Assembly (NCBI GenBank): GCA_037190965.1
Contig: JBBCKI010000019.1
Coordinates: 51,537-115,536, forward strand
Source of the DNA: Chthoniobacteraceae bacterium
Lineage (GTDB): Bacteria; Verrucomicrobiota; Verrucomicrobiia; Chthoniobacterales; Chthoniobacteraceae
DNA length: 64,000 nt
Direction of reading: 5' to 3'
In this document: in pieces, positions 1 through 14,813 of the stretch
How positions within the stretch are numbered: the first letter of the stretch is position 1
Layout of the letters: each line of letters begins with the position of its first letter
Notes under the pieces: generated by a model
What the model saw: the letters and a program-made list of their open reading frames with translations, nothing else
Databases searched by the model: none
What the model was told of the DNA's origin: nothing
Program-made: the position numbers and the translations under genes

Positions 1-454
1 TATATTGGGCTTCTGCCTGCTCGGACTGCTTGTCGCGATCTTCCGCGGTGGGCCTACCCCCGGTGACGCTTACGAAGATCAACGTGCCGCAGAGCGGACC
101 AAGCGGCTTGCCGAGCTGCGCGAGGAAGCGCATGCGAAGCTTACGAAGTATGCGGTCGATAAGGAGAAGAAGACCGCACAGATCCCGATCGAGCGCGCCA
201 TGGAGCTGACGCTCAAGGATCTGGTTGCCAAGGGAATTTCCCCCAGTGCCGAGAAGGCCGAGATCGTCCCGAGCCTCTTGGTTCCTCCGTATCTGAAGCC
301 AGCCGTCGCAACCGAAGCTGCTCCGCAAGAAGCAGCGCCCGCTGCTTCGGCGGCTCCCATCCCTGCCGCTGCCGAACCGACGCCCGCCAGCCAGCCCAGC
401 CCGGCTGCCGAGCCCCAAACTCCCGCCACCCCGGCTGCTCCCAGCGAGAACTAG
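1..454 (+). CDS. ActG-like small membrane protein (alternative complex III accessory subunit-like), 5' truncated
   Basis: N-terminal hydrophobic stretch; LTKYAVDKEKKTAQIPIERAMEL resembles the ActG-type Y..VD....IPI.RAMEL motif; Pro/Ala-rich tail; frame open at the window edge. Confidence 0.55.
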   Translation, partial: ILGFCLLGLLVAIFRGGPTPGDAYEDQRAAERTKRLAELREEAHAKLTKYAVDKEKKTAQIPIERAMELTLKDLVAKGISPSAEKAEIVPSLLVPPYLKPAVATEAAPQEAAPAASAAPIPAAAEPTPASQPSPAAEPQTPATPAAPSEN

Positions 455-465
455 AATTTTTTTCA

Positions 466-1983
466 ATGAGCGTGCCTTCCACAGTTACTCGACAGTCCTC
501 CGGGAGAGAAGTGATCCCCGGCGAACTCGAACAGGTTGAACGGGCGTCAATCGATGCCTCCGCGCGGGTCCCCGTGCTAACCTTTTATGCCTCAGCGGTA
601 TTCTGGCTTCTGGTCCAGACCGTTCTCGGCGTGATCAACGCCGTCAAGGTCCAGTGGCCGGAGTTTCTCGACGGCTGCGCCTGGCTGACTTTTGGCCGAC
701 TCTTTCCGGTCCAGAACAGTCTGATGATTTACGGCTGGGCGAGCCTTGCCGGTATCGGCACCGCCCTCTGGATTCTTGCGCGCCTTTGCCGCGTTGCCCT
801 TCCGAAGCCGGCGATGCTGCTCACGGGAACGATGCTCTGGAACGTGGCGCTGATCGCGGGCTCCCTCGAGATCCTCGCCGGGAACGGACGCGGGTTGATT
901 TATCTGGAGTTTCCGAGGTACGTCTTCGGGCTTCTCTTCGTCGCCTATAGTATAGTGGCGGTGTGGGGAGTAATCCTGTTTTTCAATCGCCGCCCCGGGC
1001 ATATCTACATTTCCGCGTGGTATCTCATCGCGGCGCTCTTCTGGTTCCCTTGGCTCGTCGGTGGCACGAACCTTCTGCTCGGCTCCGGGCTTCCCGGTGC
1101 GGCCGGTGTTCAGGGGGTGATGCAGGCGATCGTCAATGCGTGGTTCGCACAGAACGTGATCAATCTCTGGTTGAGCGCGATTGGCTTGGGTGCCATTTAC
1201 TACCTTGTTCCGAAGGTGGTTGGCCGCCCGATTCATAGTTATCACCTTGCTTCTGTCGGTTTTTGGTCGTTCGCGATCTTCTCGGTCTGGACCGGCGGCC
1301 AGCGCCTTGCCGGTGGCCCTGTTCCTGCCTGGGTCATCACCGTGGGGATCGTCGCGGCGATCCTGATGCTCATCCCCGTCGCCACCGTGACGGCCAATTA
1401 CTTCATGACGATGAAGGGCAAGTTCAATCTTGTCTATCACAGCCCGACCATCCGGTTCGTGTTCTTCGGGGCCGTGGCTTACACGCTCGCCAATCTCGTG
1501 TTGGTGGCGGGTTCCTTCCGCAGCCTCAGCAACATCACCCAGTACACCTGGTTTACGGTGGGCAGCGATTACCTCTTCATCTACGGCTTCTACTCGATGG
1601 TGATGTTCGGGGCGATGTACTACATTATCCCGCGTCTGGTCGGCTGCGAATGGCTCTCCGCCAGTTTCATCAAGCTCCACTTCTGGGGCACCGCTTACGG
1701 ATGGGGAATGACCATCGCCATGCTGCTGCTGGCCGGTTACTCACAAGGGCAGATGCTGGCGAACGTGCATGAGGTTCATGCGACCAACGCCGGGGCTGAC
1801 TTCATGCTTTCGGTATCCGCAGCGTTGCCGTTCCTCCGTGGACGCAGCATCGCCCAGATCCTACTCTGCGTCGGCCAACTCTTCTTTGCCCTTAACTTCC
1901 TGCTGATGTTGCTGCGTCTTGGCCGTCCAAGCGGAGCCCAGCCCACCCTGTTCGCACCCATCCACGAAGGAGCCAAGTCGTGA
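466..1983 (+). CDS. cbb3-type oxidase subunit I (CcoN)-like membrane protein lacking the heme/CuB ligands
   Basis: CcoN-like segments WLTFGRL, HIYISAWY, YYLVPK...RPIHSY, YYIIPRL, LHFW; ligand His positions read Q, Q, QR and S/Y. Confidence 0.85.
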   Translation: MSVPSTVTRQSSGREVIPGELEQVERASIDASARVPVLTFYASAVFWLLVQTVLGVINAVKVQWPEFLDGCAWLTFGRLFPVQNSLMIYGWASLAGIGTALWILARLCRVALPKPAMLLTGTMLWNVALIAGSLEILAGNGRGLIYLEFPRYVFGLLFVAYSIVAVWGVILFFNRRPGHIYISAWYLIAALFWFPWLVGGTNLLLGSGLPGAAGVQGVMQAIVNAWFAQNVINLWLSAIGLGAIYYLVPKVVGRPIHSYHLASVGFWSFAIFSVWTGGQRLAGGPVPAWVITVGIVAAILMLIPVATVTANYFMTMKGKFNLVYHSPTIRFVFFGAVAYTLANLVLVAGSFRSLSNITQYTWFTVGSDYLFIYGFYSMVMFGAMYYIIPRLVGCEWLSASFIKLHFWGTAYGWGMTIAMLLLAGYSQGQMLANVHEVHATNAGADFMLSVSAALPFLRGRSIAQILLCVGQLFFALNFLLMLLRLGRPSGAQPTLFAPIHEGAKS

Positions 1984-2651
1984 AGCCTACGCCACTTCTT
2001 TTTGCCGGAATCTTTGCTTCGTTTGCCGCCGCCTGGCTTGGTCTGATCGTCGCGTCTGACACGCAGATCGGTAACCTCCAGCCGCAGGTTGACGAAGAGA
2101 ACGCCGATGTTTACCCGATCAACGTAGCCGGACTCGCCGAGCAAGGCCGCCGCGTCTACATTGCCAATGGTTGCAACTATTGCCACACGCAATTGGTTCG
2201 CGAACCCCATGCCGGCCCGGACATCGCGCGGGAATGGGGCACCCGCCGCACGGTTGCCCGGGACTACATTTACGAGAGCGGCGCTGTCATCGGGTTCATG
2301 CGAAACGGTCCGGATCTCGCCAACATCGGCGCTCCCAAGGCTGAGAATTCAAGACGGGGCTACGTCAATGATCCGAAGTGGCAGTACGCGCATCTTTACA
2401 ATCCGCGCGCGACCACCCCGGCTTCAAACATGCCCGCCTATCGCTATCTCTTCGAGAAGAGGAAGATTAGTGGCGAGCGCTCCGAGAACGCGCTGAACCT
2501 GACGGAAGCCGACGGAGTTGAGGCCGGTTACGAAATGGTCCCCAACAATGACGCCAAGGCGCTCGTCGCCTACCTCCTCTCTTTGGATAGGAGCCATCCC
2601 TTAAAAGAAGTCAAAGGAGCCGCGCCTGCCCCCGCCGCTGCTGCCAAGTGA
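1980..2651 (+). CDS. ccoO: cbb3-type subunit II (CcoO)-like monoheme cytochrome c
   Basis: N-terminal TM helix, GRRVY..NGCNYCHTQ, GPDL, HLYNPR, SNMPAY; start overlaps the upstream stop. Confidence 0.85.
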   Translation: MKPTPLLFAGIFASFAAAWLGLIVASDTQIGNLQPQVDEENADVYPINVAGLAEQGRRVYIANGCNYCHTQLVREPHAGPDIAREWGTRRTVARDYIYESGAVIGFMRNGPDLANIGAPKAENSRRGYVNDPKWQYAHLYNPRATTPASNMPAYRYLFEKRKISGERSENALNLTEADGVEAGYEMVPNNDAKALVAYLLSLDRSHPLKEVKGAAPAPAAAAK

Positions 2652-3370
2652 GCACGAAGAGCCCAGATCCTTTAATGCCCATGCAACCAGGAGAAGACGA
2701 AATTGATTATCGCGAAACGGCCGATGTGACGCGTGTCCACGGCGCAGTGAAGCGCGAGCACAAGGAACCGGAGGCGGGCATCGTCCCGGTGCCGGTCTGG
2801 TGGTTTGCCGTGGTCATCCTTGTGACCTTCGGAGCCGCCTTCTACTTCGGACAGTTCGGCGGCGGCTTCAGTGGGGAAGTCTTCAATGAACGCGAAGGTT
2901 CGCTGGCTGCCGGCGCGAAAGAAGGCGGTGCTGCCGCCGGGGCGGAAGCTGCCAAAGAGCAATCCCTCGCCGAGATCGGCAAAAAGGTTTTCAACCAGAA
3001 CTGCGCTTCCTGCCATCAGGCTAACGGGCTGGGGCTCCCCGGCACTTATCCTCCCTTGGCGGCATCGCACTGGGTCAGTGGTTCCACCAAGCGTCTGACG
3101 GCGCTCGTCCTTAAGGGGATGCAGGGGCCCGTTGTGATCGAAGGGAAGAGTTACAATGGAGCGATGCCCGCCTGGGGCCGCGACTTCAACGACAAGAAGA
3201 TGGCGGCCGTCCTGAGCTACATTCGCTCGGCCTGGGGCAACACGGCGGGAGAGATCACTCCCGAACAGGTCGCCGTGGTTCGGGCAGAGTTCGCCAGCCG
3301 GACAGAGTCATTCGCTCCGCCGGAGTTGGAAGCCATTACGGAGGATATCCCCGCGGTACCCGCCCCTTAA
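2648..3370 (+). CDS. Membrane-anchored monoheme cytochrome c
   Basis: PVPVWW TM anchor, CASCHQANG.G..G.YPPLA, YNGAMP, YIR.AWGN. Confidence 0.9.
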   Translation: MSTKSPDPLMPMQPGEDEIDYRETADVTRVHGAVKREHKEPEAGIVPVPVWWFAVVILVTFGAAFYFGQFGGGFSGEVFNEREGSLAAGAKEGGAAAGAEAAKEQSLAEIGKKVFNQNCASCHQANGLGLPGTYPPLAASHWVSGSTKRLTALVLKGMQGPVVIEGKSYNGAMPAWGRDFNDKKMAAVLSYIRSAWGNTAGEITPEQVAVVRAEFASRTESFAPPELEAITEDIPAVPAP

Positions 3371-3373
3371 ATC

Positions 3374-3401
3374 TTGCCATAATTAGTAGAATTTATATAA
3401 T
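3374..3401 (+). promoter_or_regulatory. sigma70-type promoter upstream of coxA
   Basis: TTGCCA-N16-TATAAT in an AT-rich patch immediately after the cytochrome c stop. Confidence 0.6.
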
Positions 3402-3572
3402 CCCTGAAACCCCAGCCATCCCGGCGTCTTCTGCGCGGTATTCTGCAGCAAAAGCTCTCTCTTGAGCGAGCGTCTGGACGGCGTAAGTTCGCCCCGTCGA
3501 ATTTGCTGCGGTCCTCAAAAGACCGCGGGTTTCACACATTTCAGCGTCGCCAAAGCCTCAGCAATCACACCC

Positions 3573-5384
3573 ATGGAAATCTCAACGCACTCTTCGCACT
3601 CCGGTGCGGGACATGATGATGGTCATCACGACCATCACGAGCTCGGCTTTTGGAGCAAATATGTCTTCTCCACCGATCACAAGGTGATCGGTATCCAGTA
3701 CGGGCTCTCCGGGCTTCTTTTCCTGTTCCTCGGCTTCTGCTTGATGATGCTGATGCGATGGCAGCTTGCCTACCCAGGCCAGGCACTTCCGTATTTTGGG
3801 GCCGTTCTTGCCAAGGTGTTTCCTCAAGAAATGCCCAACGGCATCATGACGCCGGACTTCTATAACTCCCTCGGCGCCATGCACGGGACGATCATGGTCT
3901 TCCTCGGCATCGTTCCTGTCTCCTTCGCGGCGTTCGGTAACTATGTCGTCCCGCTCCAGATCGGCGCACCCGACATGGCGTTCCCCAAGCTGAACATGGC
4001 AAGCTTCTGGGTATTCTTTATCGGCGGCGTCATCATGCTCATCAGCTTCTTCGTTCCCGGCGGAGCGGCGAAGAGCGGCTGGACCTCCTATCCTCCTCTT
4101 GCCAACATTGCGGACACCGGCCCCGCGTTCCACCACATCTGGAACGGCCAGACGCTCTGGTTGATGGGCATGGTCTTCCTGATCACCTCCTCGCTGCTTG
4201 GCTCGGTGAACATCATTACCACGGTGATCCAGCTTCGCGCTCCCGGGTTGACCTGGATGCGCCTCCCGTTCTTCACCTGGGCGATCCTGGTGACCTCCTA
4301 TATTCTCCTCCTCGCGTTTCCTCCGCTTGAAGCCGCCGGCATCATGCAGTTGATGGATCGTGTCGCAGGTACCTCGTTCTTCAGTCCGAACGGCTTGATC
4401 GTCAGCAGCCTCGGTGGCCAGCTCGACATCAGCGGTGGCGGCAGCCCGCTTCTGTGGCAGCACCTCTTCTGGTTCCTCGCGCACCCGGAAGTTTACGTTC
4501 TTATTCTTCCCGCGCTAGGAATTGTGGCCGAAGTTATCGCCAACAACACCCGCAAGCCGCTCTGGGGCTACAAGGCGATGGTCTTCTCCGCCCTTTTCCT
4601 CGGGTTCCTCTCGTTCCTTGTCTGGGCGCACCACATGTATCTCACGGGCATGGGTACCAAGGTGAGCGCTTTCTTCCAGACGACCACCATCATGATTTCG
4701 GTGCCGTCGGTCATTATTCTCACGGCGCTTCTGATCTCGCTCTGGGGAGGGTCCATCCGTTTCACCACGCCGATGCTCTTCGCGACGGCGTTCCTCCCGA
4801 TGTTCGGCATCGGCGGTCTGACGGGTCTGCCCCTGGCGTTCAACTCGCTGGACGCCTACCTCCACGACACCTACTACATCATCGGTCACTTTCACTATAT
4901 CGTCGCGCCCGGTACGATCTTCGGCATCTTCGCAGGGGTCTACTACTGGTATCCCAAGATGACGGGCCGCACGATGAGCGACACGCTCGGTAAGCTCCAC
5001 TTCTGGGGTTCGCTCATTACGATCAACGGCATCTTCTTCCCGATGTTCCTCCAGGGTATGGCGGGGATGCACCGCCGCTGGTATGACGGCGGCCATGTTT
5101 ACGAACAGATCAGCGGGCCGATGCTCCACTGGAACAGCTTCATGTCCTGGTCGGCATGGTTGCTTGGCATTGTTCAGATCTTCTTCATCATCAACGTCTT
5201 CTGGAGCATCCGGAATGGCCGCAAGGTGAACACGAATCCCTGGGATGCGACGACCCTCGACTGGAGCACTCCGTCGCCCCCTCCTCACGGCAACTTCGAC
5301 AAGCCGGTTACGGTTTATCGTGGGCCGTATGAATACAGCGTCCCCGGTGCCGCTAAGGATTTCTCTCCCCAGGCAGAAGCATAA
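3573..5384 (+). CDS. coxA: Cytochrome c oxidase subunit I, A-family (A1)
   Basis: STDHK, MHGTIM, GAPDMAFP, WFLAHPEVY, WAHHM, LHDTYY, GHFHY, GMHRR; ATG 3573 preferred over TTG 3462. Confidence 0.97.
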   Translation: MEISTHSSHSGAGHDDGHHDHHELGFWSKYVFSTDHKVIGIQYGLSGLLFLFLGFCLMMLMRWQLAYPGQALPYFGAVLAKVFPQEMPNGIMTPDFYNSLGAMHGTIMVFLGIVPVSFAAFGNYVVPLQIGAPDMAFPKLNMASFWVFFIGGVIMLISFFVPGGAAKSGWTSYPPLANIADTGPAFHHIWNGQTLWLMGMVFLITSSLLGSVNIITTVIQLRAPGLTWMRLPFFTWAILVTSYILLLAFPPLEAAGIMQLMDRVAGTSFFSPNGLIVSSLGGQLDISGGGSPLLWQHLFWFLAHPEVYVLILPALGIVAEVIANNTRKPLWGYKAMVFSALFLGFLSFLVWAHHMYLTGMGTKVSAFFQTTTIMISVPSVIILTALLISLWGGSIRFTTPMLFATAFLPMFGIGGLTGLPLAFNSLDAYLHDTYYIIGHFHYIVAPGTIFGIFAGVYYWYPKMTGRTMSDTLGKLHFWGSLITINGIFFPMFLQGMAGMHRRWYDGGHVYEQISGPMLHWNSFMSWSAWLLGIVQIFFIINVFWSIRNGRKVNTNPWDATTLDWSTPSPPPHGNFDKPVTVYRGPYEYSVPGAAKDFSPQAEA

Positions 5385-5395
5385 TTTTCTCTACA

Positions 5396-6271
5396 ATGGA
5401 AATTCCATATACAGTCAAGCCGAGGCCGGACACGGGTCTCTGGAATGCGAAGATCGGCATCTGGCTCTTCCTCGCCTCGGAAGTGATGCTCTTCGGCGGT
5501 CTCTTTTCGGCATACATTTTCCTGCGTCTCGGCGCGGAACCGGGTTATTGGCCCAAGGGTCTTTTGAACGTTCCGGTCGGCACCATCAATACGGCCATCC
5601 TGATCGCCTCTTCGGTCAGCGTGGTTTTTGCCTGGGCGGCGCTCAAGATGCGGAACTTCAAGCGGTATCGCCTCTGCATGATGTTCACCCTGTTGTGCGG
5701 GGTGGTCTTCCTCGGGGTGAAGCTCGGTTACGAGTGGCCCGCCAAGTACCATCATTTCGGCGCTTTCATCAAACCGGAAGCCCGTGCCAAGTACGAAGAG
5801 TTCCTGGGCAACGAGCACCTGGCTGCGAAGGGGTTGCACCCCCGTGTCGAAATTAGCGGACACCTGGAGAACCACGACGCCCTGCATGACAAGGAGATCA
5901 AGGAATACCACATCCGGCTGGATGCGGTGAACGCGGACCCGACCTCTCCCGCCAACGATCACCCGCACTTCTGGCCTCGCCCGATGTCGGACAAGGTGGC
6001 GCACGTCGCGAAGGAAGACGTCCAGTGGGCAAGCATGTTCCTGCCCAAACACAGCACTTACTTTGCCGTATACTACACGATCACCGGTCTGCACGGGTTG
6101 CACGTCTTGGGCGGTCTGGTCATGTTTGCGTACTTCCTGCTTCCGGTCAGCACGCGCCTTTACCAGAAGGATCCCGATCATCTGGCGAACCGGATCGAAG
6201 TGGTGGGACTTTTCTGGCACTTCGTCGACCTCGTCTGGATTTTCGTTTTCCCGCTGTTCTATCTCCTCTAG
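5396..6271 (+). CDS. coxC: Cytochrome c oxidase subunit III with a long hydrophilic insertion
   Basis: WLFLASEVMLFGGLF, TGLHGLHV, GLFWHFVDLVW. Confidence 0.95.
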   Translation: MEIPYTVKPRPDTGLWNAKIGIWLFLASEVMLFGGLFSAYIFLRLGAEPGYWPKGLLNVPVGTINTAILIASSVSVVFAWAALKMRNFKRYRLCMMFTLLCGVVFLGVKLGYEWPAKYHHFGAFIKPEARAKYEEFLGNEHLAAKGLHPRVEISGHLENHDALHDKEIKEYHIRLDAVNADPTSPANDHPHFWPRPMSDKVAHVAKEDVQWASMFLPKHSTYFAVYYTITGLHGLHVLGGLVMFAYFLLPVSTRLYQKDPDHLANRIEVVGLFWHFVDLVWIFVFPLFYLL

Positions 6272-6290: not shown

Positions 6291-6644
6291 ATGAGCGATC
6301 CTCATCAACACGGCTCTCCCGCTACCGCGGCCGATCACCCGGTTCCGCATGACGCCGCGCATTTCCACGACCATTCCAAGCTTTACCTCGGGGTTGGGGC
6401 AGCCCTGCTGGTCCTGACGGCGGCCACGGTCGGACTGTCGTATGTTCATTTCGGCTCCGAAGAAATGAACATTCTGATCGGCATGCTCCTCGCGACCTTC
6501 AAGGCCTCGCTGGTGGCGTTGATTTTCATGCACCTCAAGGAAGAAAAGATGACCATTTACCAGTTCATGCTCGCGACGATGGTGTTCGTCACCGGGCTGT
6601 TCCTTTTGACGCTCCTGGCGTTCAAAGATCACATCGTCCTCTGA
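6291..6644 (+). CDS. Cytochrome c oxidase subunit IV (CtaF/COX4_pro-like)
   Basis: Three TM helices, KASLVALIFMHL motif. Confidence 0.9.
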   Translation: MSDPHQHGSPATAADHPVPHDAAHFHDHSKLYLGVGAALLVLTAATVGLSYVHFGSEEMNILIGMLLATFKASLVALIFMHLKEEKMTIYQFMLATMVFVTGLFLLTLLAFKDHIVL

Positions 6645-6689: not shown

Positions 6690-6893
6690 ATGTCACTTCG
6701 CGGAGTTCATATCCTCTTCATCCTCCTCAGTGTCCTGCTCTCGTTCCTGCTGGCAGCTTTCGAGCTGACAGTATACCGGCAGGGTCACGCGTTGGTTGAC
6801 GGGGTGGTCGCTTCGCTCTCGGCTGCAATTGGGTTGGGTCTCGCGGCTTACGGAATCTGGTTCATCCGGAAATCGGGGAAATCCACCGTATGA
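6690..6893 (+). CDS. Small two-TM membrane protein
   Basis: 67 aa, MSLRGVHILFI start, two hydrophobic helices, inside the cox operon and overlapping the next ORF. Confidence 0.7.
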   Translation: MSLRGVHILFILLSVLLSFLLAAFELTVYRQGHALVDGVVASLSAAIGLGLAAYGIWFIRKSGKSTV

Positions 6894-7165
6894 ACCGCCC
6901 TCTGAACATCACGCTTCCTGCCCTTCTGATTTCCATATCGATGAAGGGGAACGCCCTTGCCTGCGCGGTATGCACCGGCTCGGCCGATGCTCCTATCGCC
7001 CCGGCGATGAACGCGTCGATGGTGTTTCTTCTCGCTGCCATCGCGGTTGTCGGCAGCATGTTTTTCGGTTTTTTAATCTATCTTGCCCGGCGGGACGGCC
7101 TGCCTGCAAACGTTAATCAAGAACTCTCCGGGGAGATGGAATCCCCTATCTCTCAACAAAGCTGA
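6890..7165 (+). CDS. Small membrane protein with signal-like N-terminus and CxxC (CAVC) motif
   Basis: ALA-CAVC then one TM helix; coupled to the upstream ORF; stop 1 nt before the coxB ATG. Confidence 0.7.
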   Translation: MNRPLNITLPALLISISMKGNALACAVCTGSADAPIAPAMNASMVFLLAAIAVVGSMFFGFLIYLARRDGLPANVNQELSGEMESPISQQS

Positions 7166-7166
7166 T

Positions 7167-7982
7167 ATGTTGAATAAATTGTTAGGAATGCCCCTGAATG
7201 CTTCCGAGCACGGGTTTCAAGTCGACCAGATGCTCGAGTTTGTGCACTGGATCATGCTGGTGCTCTTCGTCGGGTGGTCGACATTCTTCATCTTTACTTT
7301 GATCCGCTTCCACAAGTCGCGGAACCCGAAGGCGGATTACCACGGCGTAAAATCCAAGGCTTCCACTCACATCGAGTTCATGGTGGTGCTGGTGGAGTCG
7401 GTCTTTCTGCTCGGGTTCGGTATTCCCCTGTGGGGCAAGCGAGTTAATGGACCAAAGCCGGAAGGAGGCGACGTGGAACGTGTCCGCGTGGTCGCCGAGC
7501 AGTACAAGTGGAACTTTCATTATCCCGGCGCAGACGGGGTGATCGGCCGCCGGAAGACTGAACTCGTGAGTGCTTCGAACCCTGTAGGGCTCGACTACAC
7601 GGATCCTGCCGCGAAGGACGATATTGTGACCGCCAACGAGATGCACCTCCCGGTCAACAAAGATGTCATCCTGGAGATCAGCTCCAAGGACGTCATTCAT
7701 AGCCTTTCGCTCCAGTTCATGCGCATCGGCCAGGACGCGACGCCCGGCCTGGTGAGCCCCATCTGGTTCAAGCCGGTCAGGACCGGCGAGTTCGAGATCA
7801 TCTGCGGCCAGCTTTGCGGTTACGGTCACTACCTCATGCGCGGAAACATGGTCATTGATTCCGCCGAGGATTATCAGGCCTGGTTGAAGGAGAAGGCGGC
7901 AAATGCCGGCGCTCCTGCTGCACCGGCTGCCGGCGCCGCAACTCCTGCTCCTGCCGCCCCTCCCGCAGGGGCCGCGCACTAG
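7167..7982 (+). CDS. coxB: Cytochrome c oxidase subunit II (CuA), no fused cytochrome c
   Basis: Two TM helices, QYKWNFHY, DVIH, CGQLCGYGHYLM; ATG 7167. Confidence 0.95.
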   Translation: MLNKLLGMPLNASEHGFQVDQMLEFVHWIMLVLFVGWSTFFIFTLIRFHKSRNPKADYHGVKSKASTHIEFMVVLVESVFLLGFGIPLWGKRVNGPKPEGGDVERVRVVAEQYKWNFHYPGADGVIGRRKTELVSASNPVGLDYTDPAAKDDIVTANEMHLPVNKDVILEISSKDVIHSLSLQFMRIGQDATPGLVSPIWFKPVRTGEFEIICGQLCGYGHYLMRGNMVIDSAEDYQAWLKEKAANAGAPAAPAAGAATPAPAAPPAGAAH

Positions 7983-8083: not shown

Positions 8084-9052
8084 ATGCAACCGGCTAAACT
8101 CTGGCTATCCCGCTACGCAAAGTTCGTCGTCGTCTTCACACTGTTTCTGATTTCAGTGGGTGGCACGGTGACGACCAAGAAGGCGGGGCTGGCAGTGCCG
8201 GATTGGCCCACCAGCTTCGGGTACAACATGTTCACTCTCCCGTTCCACTTTTGGGAGGGGGACGCTCTTTTGGAGCATTCGCATCGCCTGGTTGGCTCCG
8301 TGATGGGGATGCTGGTCATTGGCCTTTTGATCTGGACGGCCTGCGTGGAACGACGCTCGTGGGTCAAGCAGCTCACCTGGGTCGCGTTGGTCATGGTGAT
8401 TGTGCAAGGGATCATGGGCGGGCTGCGCGTCACGGAGCTCTCCATTGCCTGGGCCATCGTCCACGGCTGCACGGCTCAAGCCTTTCTTTGTCTTTTGCTC
8501 CTGATCGCGGTTGCGCTCTCGCCGGAATGGGACCGTCCTCTGGCTGCTTCGGTGAGCCCGGCGCGCGTGGCGAATTGGCGGCACTGGGCCTGGATCGTCG
8601 TCGGTGCCGTTTTTCTTCAGTTGTTTTTGGGGGCCTTCATGAGGCACATCGATGCCGGGCTGGCGATTCCGACCTTCCCTCTCACCCCCGAAGGGACCTT
8701 CATGCCGACCGTGCATAACAAGCACGTCGATATTCACTTCGCCCATCGTTTCTGGGCTCTGGTGGTGACGGTGCTTGTTGGAATCCTGACCACCAAGGTG
8801 CTCCGGTCCGCATGGGCGGAAAGGCGCTTCCGTCGACCCGCATTGGGCCTCATCGTGCTTCTGATCGTTCAGATTGCACTTGGAGCCTCGATTATCTGGA
8901 CCCAACGCGCTTCCCATCCGACGACTCTCCACGTGGTGAACGGTGCCGTGGTGCTGGCATTGAGCTTTCTTCTGGGCATTCGGGCGAACCGTTTTTCCAA
9001 GGCCCATAACGATCAACCTTTTTCGGCCTCCCCCACGCCGCTTCAAGCATGA
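8084..9052 (+). CDS. ctaA: Heme A synthase (COX15/CtaA)
   Basis: GLAVPDWP, EHSHR, QGIMGG, HFAHR; about 8 TM helices. Confidence 0.9.
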   Translation: MQPAKLWLSRYAKFVVVFTLFLISVGGTVTTKKAGLAVPDWPTSFGYNMFTLPFHFWEGDALLEHSHRLVGSVMGMLVIGLLIWTACVERRSWVKQLTWVALVMVIVQGIMGGLRVTELSIAWAIVHGCTAQAFLCLLLLIAVALSPEWDRPLAASVSPARVANWRHWAWIVVGAVFLQLFLGAFMRHIDAGLAIPTFPLTPEGTFMPTVHNKHVDIHFAHRFWALVVTVLVGILTTKVLRSAWAERRFRRPALGLIVLLIVQIALGASIIWTQRASHPTTLHVVNGAVVLALSFLLGIRANRFSKAHNDQPFSASPTPLQA

Positions 9053-9984
9053 ACGAAATCACGCAATTAGAGGGGATGGAGGGTAATCAGGCCCAGCGGC
9101 AGGGCTCCATCGAGGAGGCTGGCCTCGCCGGTTTCGTCGGAGACGTCATGCTTCTGGTCAAGGCGCGTCTGACGCTGCTGGTGGTTATCACCACGTTTGT
9201 CGGTTTTTGCATGGCGAGCCGTGGCTCCCTCGACTGGGCGCAACTTGCCCATACCGTGGTCGGCACCGCCCTGGTGGCCGCCGCCGCCGCCGCTTTCAAT
9301 CAGGTGTTGGAGATCAACGTTGACCGCCTCATGGAGCGGACCCGTCAGCGTCCGATCGCCGCGGGCCGGATGACCAAGAAGACGGCAATCCTGCTCGGTT
9401 CGATCATGGCCATCGGGGGCTTTGCCCAGCTCGCCATCGCCACCACGTGGGTCGCCGCTTATCTCTCGGCGGCTTCATTCCTGATCTACATTCTTTTCTA
9501 CACTCCGATGAAGCGTCACACGGCGCTTTGCGTGACGATCGGCGCGGTTTCCGGCGCCATTCCGCCGGTGATCGGCTGGACCGCGGTGGATGGCTCTTTT
9601 GGCATCGGCGCGTGGGTGCTGTTCGGGATTCTCTTTGCCTGGCAGATGCCCCACTTTCTTGCGATTGCCTGGATGTACCGGGACGAGTATTCGCAAGCCG
9701 GGTTTGTCATGCTGCCCAGGAAGGATTTTTCGGGGGCGTGGACAGCGGCTCAGGCGCTTCTTTACTCTGTGGCTCTCACGGCCTGCACGCTGGTTCCGTT
9801 CTTTACCGGAGAAGGGGGAGCTCTTTATCTCACGGGAGCGCTCGTGTTCGATCTTTTGATGGTGGCCTGTTCGATCTACTTCATGGTGCAGCGGACACGG
9901 CAGGCGGCGCGGCTTCTCTTTTTCTCATCGATCGTGTACCTTCCCGGGCTGCTGTTGTGCCTGATGGTTTTTACCAAACCTTGA
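9049..9984 (+). CDS. ctaB: Protoheme IX farnesyltransferase (heme O synthase)
   Basis: NQ.LE..VD.LMERT..RP, YTPMKR, GAIPPVIGW, WQMPHF. Confidence 0.95.
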   Translation: MNEITQLEGMEGNQAQRQGSIEEAGLAGFVGDVMLLVKARLTLLVVITTFVGFCMASRGSLDWAQLAHTVVGTALVAAAAAAFNQVLEINVDRLMERTRQRPIAAGRMTKKTAILLGSIMAIGGFAQLAIATTWVAAYLSAASFLIYILFYTPMKRHTALCVTIGAVSGAIPPVIGWTAVDGSFGIGAWVLFGILFAWQMPHFLAIAWMYRDEYSQAGFVMLPRKDFSGAWTAAQALLYSVALTACTLVPFFTGEGGALYLTGALVFDLLMVACSIYFMVQRTRQAARLLFFSSIVYLPGLLLCLMVFTKP

Positions 9985-10144
9985 TTCGGTCGGTTATAAG
10001 CCGGTTCTGAACCGGTCCGAACCTTGCCGCGGAAGGCGGCCTTTTGAAGTCCTGTCAGTGACACAGGGGCGCGCGGTGAAACTGTGTGTAGACAGGGAGG
10101 AGGGGATCTTCTCCTCCTTTTAACCCTTGGGGAGTCAGCTTTTC

Positions 10145-10792
10145 GTGAAAAAAATCATCTACTTTATCGCGTTATTGGTGGCGGTTGGAGGGGTCTCCTT
10201 GCAGCTCTGGCTGACCAAGCTGAGCCGTGAGCGCTCTGATGTCATTGTGCGCTCCGTCCCCGCTCAGGAGGGTTTCAGGGAATACTCCACGGTGCCGGAT
10301 TTCCAGTTTACCGACAGAAGCGGCAAGCCGGTATCGTTGGGCGACCTCAAAGGCAAGGTTTGGCTGGCGAATTTCATTTACACGACCTGCCCGACCACCT
10401 GCCCCATGCTCAGCAACCGGCTTTCGGCTCTTCAGGAAGCGGCGCTCGGAAAGGGAAACGGCGACGAAGTCCGGTTGATTTCTTTTTCCGTGGATCCGGA
10501 CAACGACACGCCGGAAGTGCTCCAGGGGTATGCCACTGCCCTGAAGGCGCAGGACCGCTGGCTTTTCCTGACCGGTCATAAGCAGCAAATCGAGCGCATC
10601 GCCCGGCAAGGGTTCCTGCTTGGGTTCGAGAAAGTCCCGGGAATTTCCAACGACATCAGCCATAGCACGAAGATCGCGCTGGTGGACCGGAAGGGAGTCG
10701 TCCGAGCTTTTTACGATGGGATCGGAGAGAACGACGAAACCCCGAAGATTCTGAAAGACATCGACGCCTTGCTCAAGGAGGACGGTAAATGA
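10145..10792 (+). CDS. SCO family copper chaperone
   Basis: FIYTTCPTTCP, SVDPDNDTP, ISHS; start GTG 10145 or TTG 10127. Confidence 0.92.
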   Translation: MKKIIYFIALLVAVGGVSLQLWLTKLSRERSDVIVRSVPAQEGFREYSTVPDFQFTDRSGKPVSLGDLKGKVWLANFIYTTCPTTCPMLSNRLSALQEAALGKGNGDEVRLISFSVDPDNDTPEVLQGYATALKAQDRWLFLTGHKQQIERIARQGFLLGFEKVPGISNDISHSTKIALVDRKGVVRAFYDGIGENDETPKILKDIDALLKEDGK

Positions 10793-11232
10793 CGATCAGC
10801 GATCTCCCCGCGCTCAATGCCAGTCTCAACTCATTGAGCACACTGTTTCTCCTCTTCGGGTGGTGGTTCATCCGGAAGGACCGAAAGAAGCAGCACATCA
10901 CGATGATGGTCTGTGCGCTGGTAACCTCCACGCTCTTCCTGGCCTCGTACCTTACCTACCACTTCAACGTCGCCGCGGTGACCAAGTTCGAAGCGGAGGG
11001 GATTATTCGCCCCATTTATCTGACGATCCTGGCGACTCATGTCGTCCTCGCCATGGTGATCGTGCCAATGGTGATCATGACCGTTGTTCCCGCGCTGCGC
11101 GCCCGATTCGATCGCCATCGGCGGATCGCCCGGTGGACCCTTCCGCTCTGGCTTTATGTTTCCGTGACCGGGGTGCTTGTCTACTTCATGCTCTACCAAT
11201 GGTTCCCGCCATCGTCCGTCGCCGCTTCCTGA
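10789..11232 (+). CDS. DUF420 (CtaM-like) membrane protein
   Basis: LPALNASLN, LFLASYL.YH, H.RIARWT.PLWLYVSVTGV. Confidence 0.9.
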   Translation: MTISDLPALNASLNSLSTLFLLFGWWFIRKDRKKQHITMMVCALVTSTLFLASYLTYHFNVAAVTKFEAEGIIRPIYLTILATHVVLAMVIVPMVIMTVVPALRARFDRHRRIARWTLPLWLYVSVTGVLVYFMLYQWFPPSSVAAS

Positions 11233-11245
11233 CCCTTATCCCTGT

Positions 11246-13147
11246 ATGAGCGCACATTGGAGCGAAAAGACCTGGCGAGAACATATCGAGAATCGGCGGC
11301 AGCAGTCGGCAGTGTGGCAGTTCATCCATCTGTGCGGCTCGATGAGGCTGGCGATGGTGCTGCTTTTCACCATCCTCGTGGCGTGCGCGATCGCCACGCT
11401 TTACGAATCCAAGTTCACCGCCCAGATCGCCCAGGCTTATGTCTACAAAAGTCAGTGGTTCATCTTCTGGCTCGCGGTGCTTTGCATCAACCTGTTTTGC
11501 GTCACGCTGACGCGCTGGCCTTGGAGACCGAAGCATTGGGGGTTTGTGATCACCCATTACGGCATCATTCTCCTGCTGATCGGCGCTGCCGTCGGGCAGA
11601 AGCTCGGGTTTGAAGCCAACGTCACGCTGCGGGTTGGCGGAGGGGCGACTCGGGACCTCATCATCAACCGGACGATTCTCCAGGTGCAAAGCGGTCAGGA
11701 CCGGCTGGCTTACAAGATCCCTGTCGACGTTCACATCCGGCCTCCGGTGCCGGAGCGCCCCAAGGCGATTGCCCTCCCGGCAAGCAAGCTCAAGTTGCGA
11801 ATCGAAAACTACGCGGAACTCGGGGAAACCCCTGAGCTGGTGGAATCGCCCCTTCCGAAATCGGGCGCCGGGGTGGCGCTGGAGTTTTCTTCCGGCATGA
11901 TGGCGCAGAGCGTCCCCGTCAACCTCACGCGTCTTCCGGAGACCGCCAGCAGCAATGACTTTTTTGGCCGGGCTCGGATCGAACTGGTCGATCAACTGCC
12001 GGATCGCTCGGGAGCGCAAGCCCCGGATCTCGCCTTTGAGGAATCGCAGATGGTCTTTGCGCAGTCCGAGCCGGTTATCTCCACCCGCAAGGGGAAGCCG
12101 AGCGGTTATCGGCTGGCGTTGATCATGGAGGGAGCCACGCCTCAGGTGGTCGTGGAATCGCCGCTTTCGACACCCGCCCCGGGTCACGGGGGCGGAGCGT
12201 CACCGCGCCGCGAGATGTTCGAGCTTTCCAAGATTCTCGGCAAGCCGTTCTCCCTTCAGGGGGAGGCGACGGAGATTCACATCCGGGAGTACTGGCCCGA
12301 CATGGAATTGCGCGACGGCGTCCCTGTTTCGAAGTCCGACGAACCCAACAACCCCGCCATGCTGGTGTTGATTTCCGGACAGGGCGCAGGGGAGAAGCCG
12401 TTGTTGGAAATCGCAATGGCGGAAGGAGGCGGGATTGTCTATCAGATGAGCCGGGGTGGCGCGGTCGCGGCCTCCGGAAAGGCGGCGGTGGGGGAGAGTT
12501 TCCAACTCGGGTGGGCCGACTGGAAGGCGTTGGTCAAGCAGGCGCTTCCCAACGCGATGATCCGCAACCAGCTTTCGCCTGTCGATGAAAAGGCGGCAGC
12601 CGCATCCGGCCGAGAAAGTCTGACCCCGGGGATCTTCGCCCGTCTGGTGGACCGGCAGAAGGGCGAGGGAGAAGCGGAATGGATTCCCTCCGGACGCGGC
12701 ACCATGTTGCGACTCGGCGACGAGACGGCTTTTGTCGGCTTCGGCCTGGAGGTTTACAAGCTTCCGTTCACCATTGAATTGTTGAAGTTCGAGGTGCCTC
12801 GCGACCCGGGGACTGAAACCCCGGCAGACTTCCAGAGCAGCGTCCGCTTTACCGACTCCGCCACCGGACAGACAGTCGATTCGTTTATTCACATGAACAA
12901 CCCGGCCAGTTTCCCGGAGGGGTTCTGGCGGGCGGCACTGGGACGCAATTTCAAGTTCTCTCAGGCTCAATGGAACGCCCGCGATCTCAACGAAACGACG
13001 CTGCAGATTCTGCATGATCCGGGCTGGCCGCTCAAGTGGATCGGCTCGCTGGGCATTTGCATTGGCATTGCAATCATGTTTTACGGCAAACCGGCGGGAT
13101 CGAAGAACCGCAAGCAATCCACGCGCAAAAGCGCAAAAACCGCATAA
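11246..13147 (+). CDS. ResB-like cytochrome c biogenesis protein (System II)
   Basis: Three N-terminal TM helices with THYGII, large soluble domain, MNNP, C-terminal DPGWPLKW.G TM. Confidence 0.8.
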   Translation: MSAHWSEKTWREHIENRRQQSAVWQFIHLCGSMRLAMVLLFTILVACAIATLYESKFTAQIAQAYVYKSQWFIFWLAVLCINLFCVTLTRWPWRPKHWGFVITHYGIILLLIGAAVGQKLGFEANVTLRVGGGATRDLIINRTILQVQSGQDRLAYKIPVDVHIRPPVPERPKAIALPASKLKLRIENYAELGETPELVESPLPKSGAGVALEFSSGMMAQSVPVNLTRLPETASSNDFFGRARIELVDQLPDRSGAQAPDLAFEESQMVFAQSEPVISTRKGKPSGYRLALIMEGATPQVVVESPLSTPAPGHGGGASPRREMFELSKILGKPFSLQGEATEIHIREYWPDMELRDGVPVSKSDEPNNPAMLVLISGQGAGEKPLLEIAMAEGGGIVYQMSRGGAVAASGKAAVGESFQLGWADWKALVKQALPNAMIRNQLSPVDEKAAAASGRESLTPGIFARLVDRQKGEGEAEWIPSGRGTMLRLGDETAFVGFGLEVYKLPFTIELLKFEVPRDPGTETPADFQSSVRFTDSATGQTVDSFIHMNNPASFPEGFWRAALGRNFKFSQAQWNARDLNETTLQILHDPGWPLKWIGSLGICIGIAIMFYGKPAGSKNRKQSTRKSAKTA

Positions 13148-13160
13148 GTCTTCTCACGCG

Positions 13161-14813
13161 ATGAAAACATATCTGTTGGCTTTCTTTCTGGCGTTGGCGG
13201 TTTCCGCCTCGGCCGCGATTACCGATTTCTCCGGTGTTGAGAATATCCCCATCCAGGGCGGTGGCCGCGAGAAGCCGTATTTCACCTACGCCACCGAAAC
13301 ACTCCAGACGCTCACCGGGCGGGCCACCTACCGCGACGGCGAAAGGAAGATCCCTGCGATGGAGGCGATCTTCGACATCGGTTTCCACCCGCACGCATGG
13401 GGCGAACGCCCGCTGATCCTGATCGATTACAAGCCGCTCAAGGAAGCCATTGGGCTCCCGACCGATCGCAAGCTTTTCTCGCTCTCGGAGCTCGCCGCGA
13501 ACGAAGGCCTCAAGGAACGGGTCGCGGAAGTTGAAAAGCTGTTGGGCGATCCTGCCAAGCCGAAGCTGAACCGCGAGCAGACCGAGGTCAGCGAGATCAC
13601 CGCCCGCGTCAGGCTGGCTCACGCCTTGATGGAGGGCAACGCGTTCGCTTTTGTCCCGCATCCCTCGGGCCCGGTGTGGCTGCCTGTCGCGTTTGTCGCC
13701 AAGGCTTACCCCAACGCGGGGGGAGAGGCGGTTGCGCAGGGCTGGACGGAACTAGGAAACGCCTTTTTGAAGGGGGATGACACGGCCTTCAGGTCGGCTG
13801 CCGGGAAGTTTGCCAGCGGGCTTTCCGCGTTGCGTCCGGACGCCTACCCAAGCGCGGATGTCATGAAGCTAGAGACCGTCTACGGCAAGGCTCATCCGTT
13901 CCGCTGGGCGTGGCTCCTCTACGCGCTGGCTGCAATCGTGCTTTGGGTGACCACGCTTTGGGCGAGGTCGGGCGGATATCGGATTGCCTGGGGCCTCATC
14001 TCCATCGGCTTCGTTCTCCAGATTGCGGGCTTTGTCGCCCGGATCATTATCGGCGGGCGGGGGCCGGTCACCAATATGTACGAGTCGGTGATCTGGGCGG
14101 CCTTCGGGACGATCCTCTTCGCCATGATTCTGGAGGCGATCTACCGTTCGCGGTATATGTTCCTCGGGGCGACTCCCGTGGCGGTGGTTTGCCTCATTCT
14201 TGCCGACACACAGACGACCATTCTCAAGCCTTCCATCGATCCGCTGGCGGCGGTATTGAGGAACAACTTCTGGCTATCCACCCATGTCACCAGCATCACG
14301 CTCAGCTACGCGGCGTTTGCGCTGGCGCTCGGGGTGGGGCATATCGTGTTGGGAAAAGTGTTTTTCAGGCGGCCTGTTTCCGCCGCCCTTTACAACTATC
14401 TCTACCGCTCGCTCCAGATCGGGGTTCTGTTGCTGGCCATCGGGACGATTCTCGGCGGCGTCTGGGCCAACGTCTCCTGGGGCCGGTTTTGGGACTGGGA
14501 CCCGAAGGAAACCTGGGCGTTAATCGCGCTGTTAGGTTATCTGGCAATCCTGCACGGTCGCATTGCCGGGTGGTGGAAAGGTTTTGGCCTGGCAGTCGGC
14601 TCGGTGCTGGCGTTCCAGTCGGTGCTGATGGCGTGGTACGGCGTCAATTTTGTCCTCGGCGAGGGCTTGCATAGTTATGGATTCGGGACGGGGGGCTTCC
14701 CTGCCGTGCTCGCTTATGTCATTGCCGAGGTCGTCTTCGTCGCCCTGGTTATTGCCCGTCGCAAGAAGGAGTCGGCGGCGGCCGAACCCGAGGTCGAAGA
14801 GATCGAGGCATAG
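13161..14813 (+). CDS. ccsA: Cytochrome c biogenesis protein CcsA/ResC
   Basis: PVTNMYES, WLSTHV, WANVSWGRFWDWDPKETW, GLHSY. Confidence 0.93.
   Translation: MKTYLLAFFLALAVSASAAITDFSGVENIPIQGGGREKPYFTYATETLQTLTGRATYRDGERKIPAMEAIFDIGFHPHAWGERPLILIDYKPLKEAIGLPTDRKLFSLSELAANEGLKERVAEVEKLLGDPAKPKLNREQTEVSEITARVRLAHALMEGNAFAFVPHPSGPVWLPVAFVAKAYPNAGGEAVAQGWTELGNAFLKGDDTAFRSAAGKFASGLSALRPDAYPSADVMKLETVYGKAHPFRWAWLLYALAAIVLWVTTLWARSGGYRIAWGLISIGFVLQIAGFVARIIIGGRGPVTNMYESVIWAAFGTILFAMILEAIYRSRYMFLGATPVAVVCLILADTQTTILKPSIDPLAAVLRNNFWLSTHVTSITLSYAAFALALGVGHIVLGKVFFRRPVSAALYNYLYRSLQIGVLLLAIGTILGGVWANVSWGRFWDWDPKETWALIALLGYLAILHGRIAGWWKGFGLAVGSVLAFQSVLMAWYGVNFVLGEGLHSYGFGTGGFPAVLAYVIAEVVFVALVIARRKKESAAAEPEVEEIEA

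Follow-up and report, generated by a model that had tools for sequence, protein, structure and literature searches.

We identified a CcoN-like protein in a Chthoniobacteraceae bacterium which has the fold of heme-copper oxidase subunit I, is under selection and stands outside the active cbb3 family, and which is therefore a pseudo-enzyme: its catalytic residues are lost, its reading frame is intact and its gene evolves under purifying selection. Judged by its sequence, the protein is unable to reduce O2 or NO because all metal ligands are lost, as the initial annotation of this DNA had concluded. The gene closes the operon of an alternative complex III (ACIII) and is followed by the genes of two monoheme cytochromes, a CcoO-like protein and a membrane-tethered third protein (together with ccoN referred to as the trio; Table 1). 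We consider it likely that this dead C-family oxidase is retained as the scaffold of the cytochrome exit wire of ACIII. The DNA analyzed, referred to as the window, is a stretch of 64,000 nucleotides (G000:C19:51537-115536). The nearest named relatives are Chthoniobacteraceae, and the matching sequencing runs are soil metagenomes.

Table 1. Features of the window discussed in the text (positions in the window).
Feature	Position	Strand	Remarks
ActG-like single-helix gene, 3' part; last gene of the ACIII cluster	1..454	+	label by position only
Ligand-less CcoN (pseudo-enzyme)	466..1983	+	505 aa, 12 membrane helices plus an N-terminal helix
CcoO-like monoheme cytochrome c	1980..2651	+	PF02433; CxxCH and axial Met151 kept
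Membrane-tethered monoheme cytochrome c	2648..3370	+	CcoP-like anchor, flexible Gly/Ala linker, c552-type domain
Sigma70-like promoter match, 11/12	3374..3401	+	between trio and coxA; 1 site found versus 1.1 expected by chance in 4 kb
A-family oxidase subunit I, intact	3573..5384	+	HGT, HPEVY, HHM and HFH motifs
aa3 subunit III (COX3)	5396..6271	+	
aa3 subunit IV (COX4_pro)	6291..6644	+	
aa3 subunit II	7167..7982	+	CuA motif, without cytochrome c domain
ctaA, ctaB, SCO and DUF420 assembly genes	8084..11232	+	
ResB-like and CcsA cytochrome c maturation genes	11246..14813	+	

Loss of the Metal Ligands in an Intact Reading Frame

The ccoN gene consists of a single frame with zero internal stops. 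It starts 11 bases after the end of the ActG-like gene, and its stop overlaps the start of ccoO in a GTGA at positions 1980-1983, in agreement with the earlier description of an intact, full-length frame coupled to ccoO. The ccoO gene and the third gene overlap in the same way at 2648-2651. Positions 1-5400 of the window are matched by a single contig of run X1 with one different letter, which does not lie within the ccoN frame; X1 may be the source of the DNA, so this match is not independent.

Window CcoN was aligned to CcoN of P. stutzeri (3mk7_A) using HMMER, residue numbers being counted on this alignment, which is gap-free around all ligand sites. None of the six heme-copper His ligands is present and the cross-link Tyr in helix VII of active C-family oxidases is Ser273, so that all seven residues reported as replaced are indeed changed (H60 to Q83, H207 to Q229, Y251 to S273, H257 to Q279, H258 to R280, H345 to S367, and H347 to Y369; the roles of these residues are taken to be those known from structural work on cbb3). 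The YYxxPK, RPxxSY, YYxxPRL and HFW motifs, said to be kept, are all present. Ligands at shifted positions were ruled out: the eight His residues of the protein (179, 257, 260, 325, 405, 435, 438, and 500) are found in loops, at helix ends or in a lineage insert of the structural model, and none of them in a ligand segment. An assembly error was also rejected as the source of the ligand loss, which is common to 117 of the 119 best homologues. No split or complementing partner was found among the four COX1-family genes of the genome; the operon has no second ccoN and the canonical cbb3 oxidase encoded on contig C23 has all ligands.

The subunit I fold of the superfamily is recognized by PF00115 (169 bits, cut-off 34.8). 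With the ccoN equivalog model TIGR00780 the protein scores 172.9 bits, below the cut-off of 583, a score that does not separate dead from live proteins. An AlphaFold2 model built with 118 homologues reached a pLDDT of 91 and has 3mk7_A as its best match; compared to P. stutzeri cbb3 (3MK7/5DJQ) the TM-scores are 0.84/0.91 at 25% identity. A search of the ESM Atlas returned COX1 clusters only. The positions of the presumed K-channel residues T215, Y223, S240, and Y317 are occupied by Ser237, Tyr245, Ala262, and Tyr339, which is not the set of an active C-family oxidase. Window CcoN keeps neither heme b His, nor R57. The equivalent of Glu122 is Ile145 in the ExxE register of intact relatives; HMMER aligns this loop otherwise, also without a Glu. 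In window CcoO, compared to 3mk7_B, Ser102 and Thr105 correspond to Phe106 and Asn109. CcoO Ser102 is described as a Ca2+ ligand that forms the Ca2+ site together with CcoN Glu122 (available text of PMC10256718), and with Ile145 and Phe106 both of these residues are replaced here.

The actA-B-C-D-E-F cluster lies directly upstream of the window (G000:C19:43753-51488) in the same order as in relatives. Read from sequence and gene order, the putative ActA has five CxxCH motifs and the putative ActE has one. The promoter-like site behind the trio suggests, as a lead only, that the aa3 genes may be transcribed separately. Two small ORFs between coxD and coxB (window 6690-6893 and 6890-7165) have no Pfam match and are kept in the aa3 clusters of many relatives. 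The bc1 cytochrome b (PF00033) was not found in this genome, which is 97% complete. A second ACIII cluster, immediately followed by caa3 genes and lacking a ccoN trio, is located outside the window (G000:C66:32212-43705, minus strand). Its caa3 subunit I has Pro at the position of the expected helix VI CuB His (YSPPAVY); this difference could be genuine and inactivating, or an artifact of the assembly.

Distribution of Intact and Ligand-Less CcoN

Among the best 119 homologues, 117 keep at most three of the seven residues and two keep all. All 33 named matches are called cbb3 subunit I and each of them keeps at most two of the seven residues; the suspicion that automated annotation would miscall such proteins was thus justified. 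A CcoN match is present in 139 of the 151 genomes of the order, a count that takes in an unpublished genome (G137) and a small number with canonical ccoN only, and matches also occur in most sampled families of the class. The ligand state was scored in 159 distinct subfamily proteins, which come from named loci and from genome regions hand-picked across families and are not a random sample. Their distribution is bimodal: 74 proteins keep all seven residues, two keep six (one of these is truncated) and 83, hereafter referred to as ligand-less, keep none to three (0, 1, 2, and 3 residues in 39, 32, 10, and 2 proteins, respectively). In L094, whose sister genomes have intact CcoN, a single CuB ligand is missing (H257 replaced by Gln), and this protein may represent the beginning of the loss.

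The actF gene precedes 82 of the 83 ligand-less genes, and this linkage is the basis on which CcoN is regarded as a putative member of ACIII. Both cytochrome genes follow in 81 of the 82 loci with enough DNA, and the remaining locus continues into unrelated DNA. In Verrucomicrobiae and Planctomycetota, intact copies are likewise found at this position behind actF/actG, and one protein labelled Methylacidiphilales has intact ligands. Five records from Beta- and Gammaproteobacteria (L038, L039, L041, L042, and L043) have intact subfamily copies in the order ccoN-ccoO-cytochrome-SCO, and the DNA fetched for these records contains no act genes. Second subfamily copies, located apart from the act cluster, occur at L079 (G132:C26) and L120 (G063:C1), each with ccoO and a copper-ATPase-like gene behind it; the copy is intact in G132 and frameshifted in G063. 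The titles of L012, L021, L025, L031, L035, L030, and L027 (Akkermansia, Arcobacter, Alcaligenaceae, and Chromulinivoraceae) disagree with their sequences, which group with or near other Verrucomicrobiota, and these labels look unreliable.

The canonical ccoNO-Q-P-G-I cluster on C23, which has counterparts in several relatives, leaves room for the idea that ligand-less CcoN serves as a decoy or regulator of this separate cbb3 oxidase. We regard this as extremely improbable, since many ligand-less genomes (e.g., G004, G013, G014, and G048) have a single CcoN-like match only and the gene travels with the act genes and with its own CcoO.

Purifying Selection After Repeated Loss of the Active Site

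The dN/dS ratio (Nei-Gojobori) of ccoN in the window compared to its closest locus (L003) is 0.115, similar values being obtained for actC (0.100) and coxA (0.098). Finite dS values were obtained for 19 of 21 pairs of ligand-less genes, with dN/dS between 0.047 and 0.239, and 11 of 13 intact pairs gave values of 0.017-0.111; these ratios are approximate, as dS in many cases approaches or exceeds 1. When rates are scaled to ACIII, ligand-less CcoN has changed at about twice the pace of intact CcoN (median 2.16, n = 21, versus 1.11, n = 9). The sequence comparisons thus indicate that the evolution of ligand-less CcoN is relaxed, not neutral. Recent neutral decay, the outcome that would have overturned the initial annotation, does not account for the window protein, and the proposal that it is kept for another role is borne out by the clade-wide loss together with dN/dS values far below 1.

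Slow decay of a redundant oxidase gene, a reading to which we give next to no weight, is already largely refuted. The faster evolution compared to intact CcoN is what it would predict, and the gene at L121 is cut short before unrelated sequence, while the locus at L045 is frameshifted throughout, other genes included. Such decay is difficult to reconcile with the low dN/dS in all 19 pairs and with full-length frames that persist across whole families after the loss.

To reconstruct the history of the loss, ligand state was mapped onto an ActC-D-E-F tree built from 110 loci. The state changes 14 times in this tree, whose supported branches provide 11 independent pairs. In a FastTree of the full CcoN set, the 83 ligand-less rows form a single weak clade with a support of 0.73. 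The single ancient loss suggested by this tree was rejected by AU tests of ligand-less CcoN monophyly (p = 0.005 with all CcoN columns and p = 1e-6 with ACIII), which used 32 hand-picked rows, a fast search and one model. In a 394-column version of CcoN without the relaxed columns p was 4e-5, the removed columns having been picked by the trait itself. The direction of change was taken to be loss rather than gain because the outgroups have intact CcoN and different lineages carry different replacements. On the ACIII tree we infer that the active site was lost about 11-14 independent times.

Relaxation of the Cofactor Side

Residues around the former cofactors have relaxed together with the ligands, most of all in the cofactor-side helices 6, 7, 9, and 10. 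R57 is present in 74 of 74 intact and in 18 of 83 ligand-less proteins, which retain E122 in 32 cases. The decay extends to the CcoO loop that faces the hemes, where the Ser102 equivalent is Thr or Ser in 44/44 intact loci versus 22/62 ligand-less loci, and the T105 equivalent is lost in 61/62 ligand-less versus 2/44 intact loci, with the same direction in 10.3 of the 11 independent pairs (p about 0.002). The junction from CcoO to heme b has thus decayed while the c hemes are under selection, and electrons must therefore go elsewhere than to CcoN.

The relaxation extends to the K-channel. S240 is Ser in all 74 intact proteins but in only 12 of the 83 ligand-less ones (Ala in 69), which retain T215 in 22, Y317 in 45 and Y223 in 70 cases. 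In about 8 of the 11 independent pairs, ligand loss is accompanied by a change at S240, and the same holds for Y317. These numbers bear on the possibility that CcoN is kept as an ion conduit whose proton channel couples ACIII turnover to proton or ion movement. The retention of the Y223 equivalent could be read in its favor, as could the fact that proton pumping by ACIII is presented as unsettled in the accessible part of PMC8498564, but the replacement of S240 and the losses of T215 and Y317 make such a role very improbable.

The replacement residues amount to 7-14 kinds at each ligand column, none being common across lineages. This argues against the binding of a new cofactor, gas or quinone in the emptied pockets, by which CcoN would act as a sensor, heme chaperone or residual heme b relay, as does the location of the strongest relaxation and the absence of both heme b His and R57 from the window protein. 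Some observations fit such binding: the H258 site is Arg in 44/83 and the E125 equivalent is kept in 65/83 ligand-less proteins, and both low-spin heme b His residues are present in 8/83, which all belong to a single lineage with a Ca. Udaeobacter record (L008) among its members. Taken together we consider a new pocket function quite improbable. The retained His residues in that lineage may represent an intermediate stage or residual heme. Its members (L008, L053, L054, L057, L058, L059, L062, and L063) have lost the ligands of the binuclear center and kept R57 and ExxE along with the low-spin heme b His residues, and CcoO of the L008-type lineage carries a long Ala/Pro-rich insert.

Two Conserved Cytochromes Encoded With the Dead Subunit

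As in cbb3 architecture, window CcoN has a CcoO partner with a c-type heme (CxxCH, Met151, and modelled binding). The third protein has one CxxCH and scores 50.8 bits with the ccoP model (cut-off 180), and is therefore not a diheme CcoP. Its model consists of an anchor helix, a disordered linker of 36 residues and a globular c552-type domain, for which Thermus c552 and the c domains of heme-Cu nitrite reductases are the closest solved relatives (109 and 137 bits; rmsd 1.3-2.5 A). These c552 and c domains donate electrons to CuA or type-1 Cu (cupredoxin copper).

The initial annotation had proposed modelling CcoN alongside CcoO. A three-chain model of CcoN, CcoO and the cytochrome scored 0.87 (best control 0.16), above a mark which 116/157 solved and 2/215 mismatched pairs reached and which is only roughly valid for a three-chain job with custom alignments. 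At least 80% of the contacts were shared by three runs, and the pLDDT of the partners was 85 or higher. The model supports the view that CcoN would bind CcoO and the cytochrome anchor, although its score may stem from likeness to solved cbb3. Conserved residues of ligand-less proteins showed no significant enrichment at the modelled interface (p = 0.06, 0.07, and 0.48). A search for an ACIII-specific surface motif gave seven candidate residues, which are a lead only, the non-ACIII comparators being five proteins of one clade.

Both heme-binding motifs are invariant in ligand-less loci (CxxCH in 82/82 CcoO and 81/81 third proteins), and so is Met173 of the third protein (61/61). The axial Met of CcoO is retained in 73/82 ligand-less loci and replaced in nine. 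It is Cys (SxCPP) in seven loci from three separate ligand-less lineages (L080, L081, L091, L092, L093, L095, and L174), His in L186 and perhaps Lys in L192. Such ligation suggests that a Cys- or His-ligated CcoO heme is of low potential and retuned, and the CcoO heme may therefore not sit on a high-potential path everywhere.

A-Family Oxidases Accompany Ligand-Less CcoN

An A-family oxidase match was found in all 73 ligand-less genomes searched and in 38 of 45 intact genomes. The seven genomes without such a match all have intact CcoN; related genomes in these counts are not independent, four of the seven sharing a genus. Genes for aa3 occur within about 10 kb in 41/62 ligand-less versus 8/51 intact loci, leaving 21 ligand-less loci with no aa3 genes within that distance. 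At L103, L105, L106, L124-L126, and L129-L131, coxB lies right behind the trio and the fetched DNA shows no coxA after it; coxA was located elsewhere in the two genomes that were checked. Of the aa3 genes, the one for the CuA subunit has the tightest linkage to the module.

In R. marinus (ACIII-caa3) and F. johnsoniae (ACIII-aa3), ACIII is bridged to the oxidase by an additional c domain, carried by subunit II or by ActA, according to the available sections of PMC5928083. The heme c motif is absent from all 51 subunit II rows adjoining the module and ActA has no sixth heme. The possibility that the trio is kept only where the oxidase lacks heme c was rejected: a subunit II with its own heme c (caa3) is present in 13 of the 18 ligand-less genomes of which the best A-family locus was fetched. 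The missing bridge is thus not the whole reason for keeping the trio.

The trio is also kept where caa3 could accept electrons straight from ActE (PMC5928083, available sections), the linkage to the act genes is tighter than that to the aa3 genes, and the axial ligand of CcoO drifts in nine loci, all of which would be expected if dead CcoN were an entrenched structural subunit, needed only for ACIII assembly or stability, with the two cytochromes outside the main electron flux. We consider this unlikely. Cytochromes that carry no main flux would hardly be expected to keep both CxxCH motifs and Met173 invariant, the ACIII of R. marinus works without the trio (PMC5928083), and the second act cluster of this genome lacks it.

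A Proposed Scaffold for Electron Exit From ACIII

Of the four roles proposed initially (scaffold, electron-wire anchor, ion conduit, and assembly factor), scaffold or electron-wire anchor fits best and ion conduit fits poorly, the K-channel residues having relaxed with the ligands. In the mechanism that we propose for a scaffold, the ancestral ACIII operon would have ended in a working oxidase composed of CcoN, CcoO and the tethered monoheme cytochrome, which apparently is still intact in many lineages. Where an A-family oxidase is present, the active site of CcoN would have been lost repeatedly and the protein retained. Dead CcoN would then position CcoO and the tethered cytochrome beside ACIII, and electrons would pass from quinol via ActC/B/A/E to CcoO and/or the tethered c552-type heme, and from there to CuA (or a c heme) of the A-family oxidase. 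At the window locus the acceptor would be the aa3 oxidase of the neighboring genes, and the two c hemes may act in either order.

Compared to P. stutzeri cbb3, the module shares the fold, the N-O-cytochrome order, the CcoO heme motif and the modelled packing of CcoN, CcoO and the anchor. It differs in that CcoN lacks the heme b, b3 and CuB ligands and the cross-link Tyr, in the relaxed K-channel and Ca2+ site, in the monoheme c552-type domain on a flexible linker in place of a diheme CcoP, and in its location within an ACIII operon. The c552 of T. thermophilus and the c domain of three-domain heme-Cu nitrite reductase are most similar to the domain of the third protein, which differs from them by its CcoP-like anchor helix. 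In the R. marinus and F. johnsoniae supercomplexes, as would be the case for the window module, ACIII electrons reach an A-family oxidase via an extra c-type heme. In those two systems subunit II or ActA contains the bridging domain. Here, with five hemes in ActA and none in the neighboring subunit II, the candidate bridge is a separate cytochrome pair on dead CcoN. ActF, a non-catalytic copy of ActC according to the part of PMC5928083 available, likewise is a membrane enzyme fold without substrate site in the same complex (for CcoN putatively, by gene linkage). It has a different fold and is fixed in all ACIII, whereas the death of CcoN is repeated and lineage-specific.

In the accessible parts of PMC8498564 and PMC6688271, the ACIII-adjacent cbb3 genes of verrucomicrobial methanotrophs and Opitutaceae are treated as working oxidases, the latter as high-affinity ones. 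These genes occupy the same slot after the act genes, and 74 intact orthologues were found here, yet 83 of the 159 proteins cannot be oxidases. In the portions available of PMC13608581 and PMC10205796, cbb3 is listed among the oxidases and its ligands are unnamed. A full-text search, with most subscription papers outside its reach, returned no description of a ligand-less, ACIII-linked CcoN.

On a wider scale, Verrucomicrobiae may have a third type of connection between ACIII and an oxidase, in which a whole terminal oxidase has turned into an obligatory output module of ACIII. Its core would have been inactivated in a dozen independent events and its cytochromes would have been rewired so as to feed A-family oxidases; in at least three lineages, a His- or Cys-ligated, retuned CcoO heme may hint at additional acceptors or at reverse electron flow. 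We find this generalization plausible and stop just short of calling it probable.

To our knowledge, the six His ligands are regarded as a universal feature of heme-copper oxidase subunit I, and a widespread, selected and metal-free subunit I would be a new use of this fold. A label of cbb3 subunit I is taken to indicate respiration of the high-affinity, microaerobic type, which is wrong for this copy in much of Chthoniobacterales, including the Ca. Udaeobacter record. The occurrence of live and dead CcoN in sister lineages constitutes a natural replicated experiment on the change from enzyme to scaffold, and the trio is a concrete candidate for the handover of electrons from ACIII to aa3 where a bridging domain is absent.
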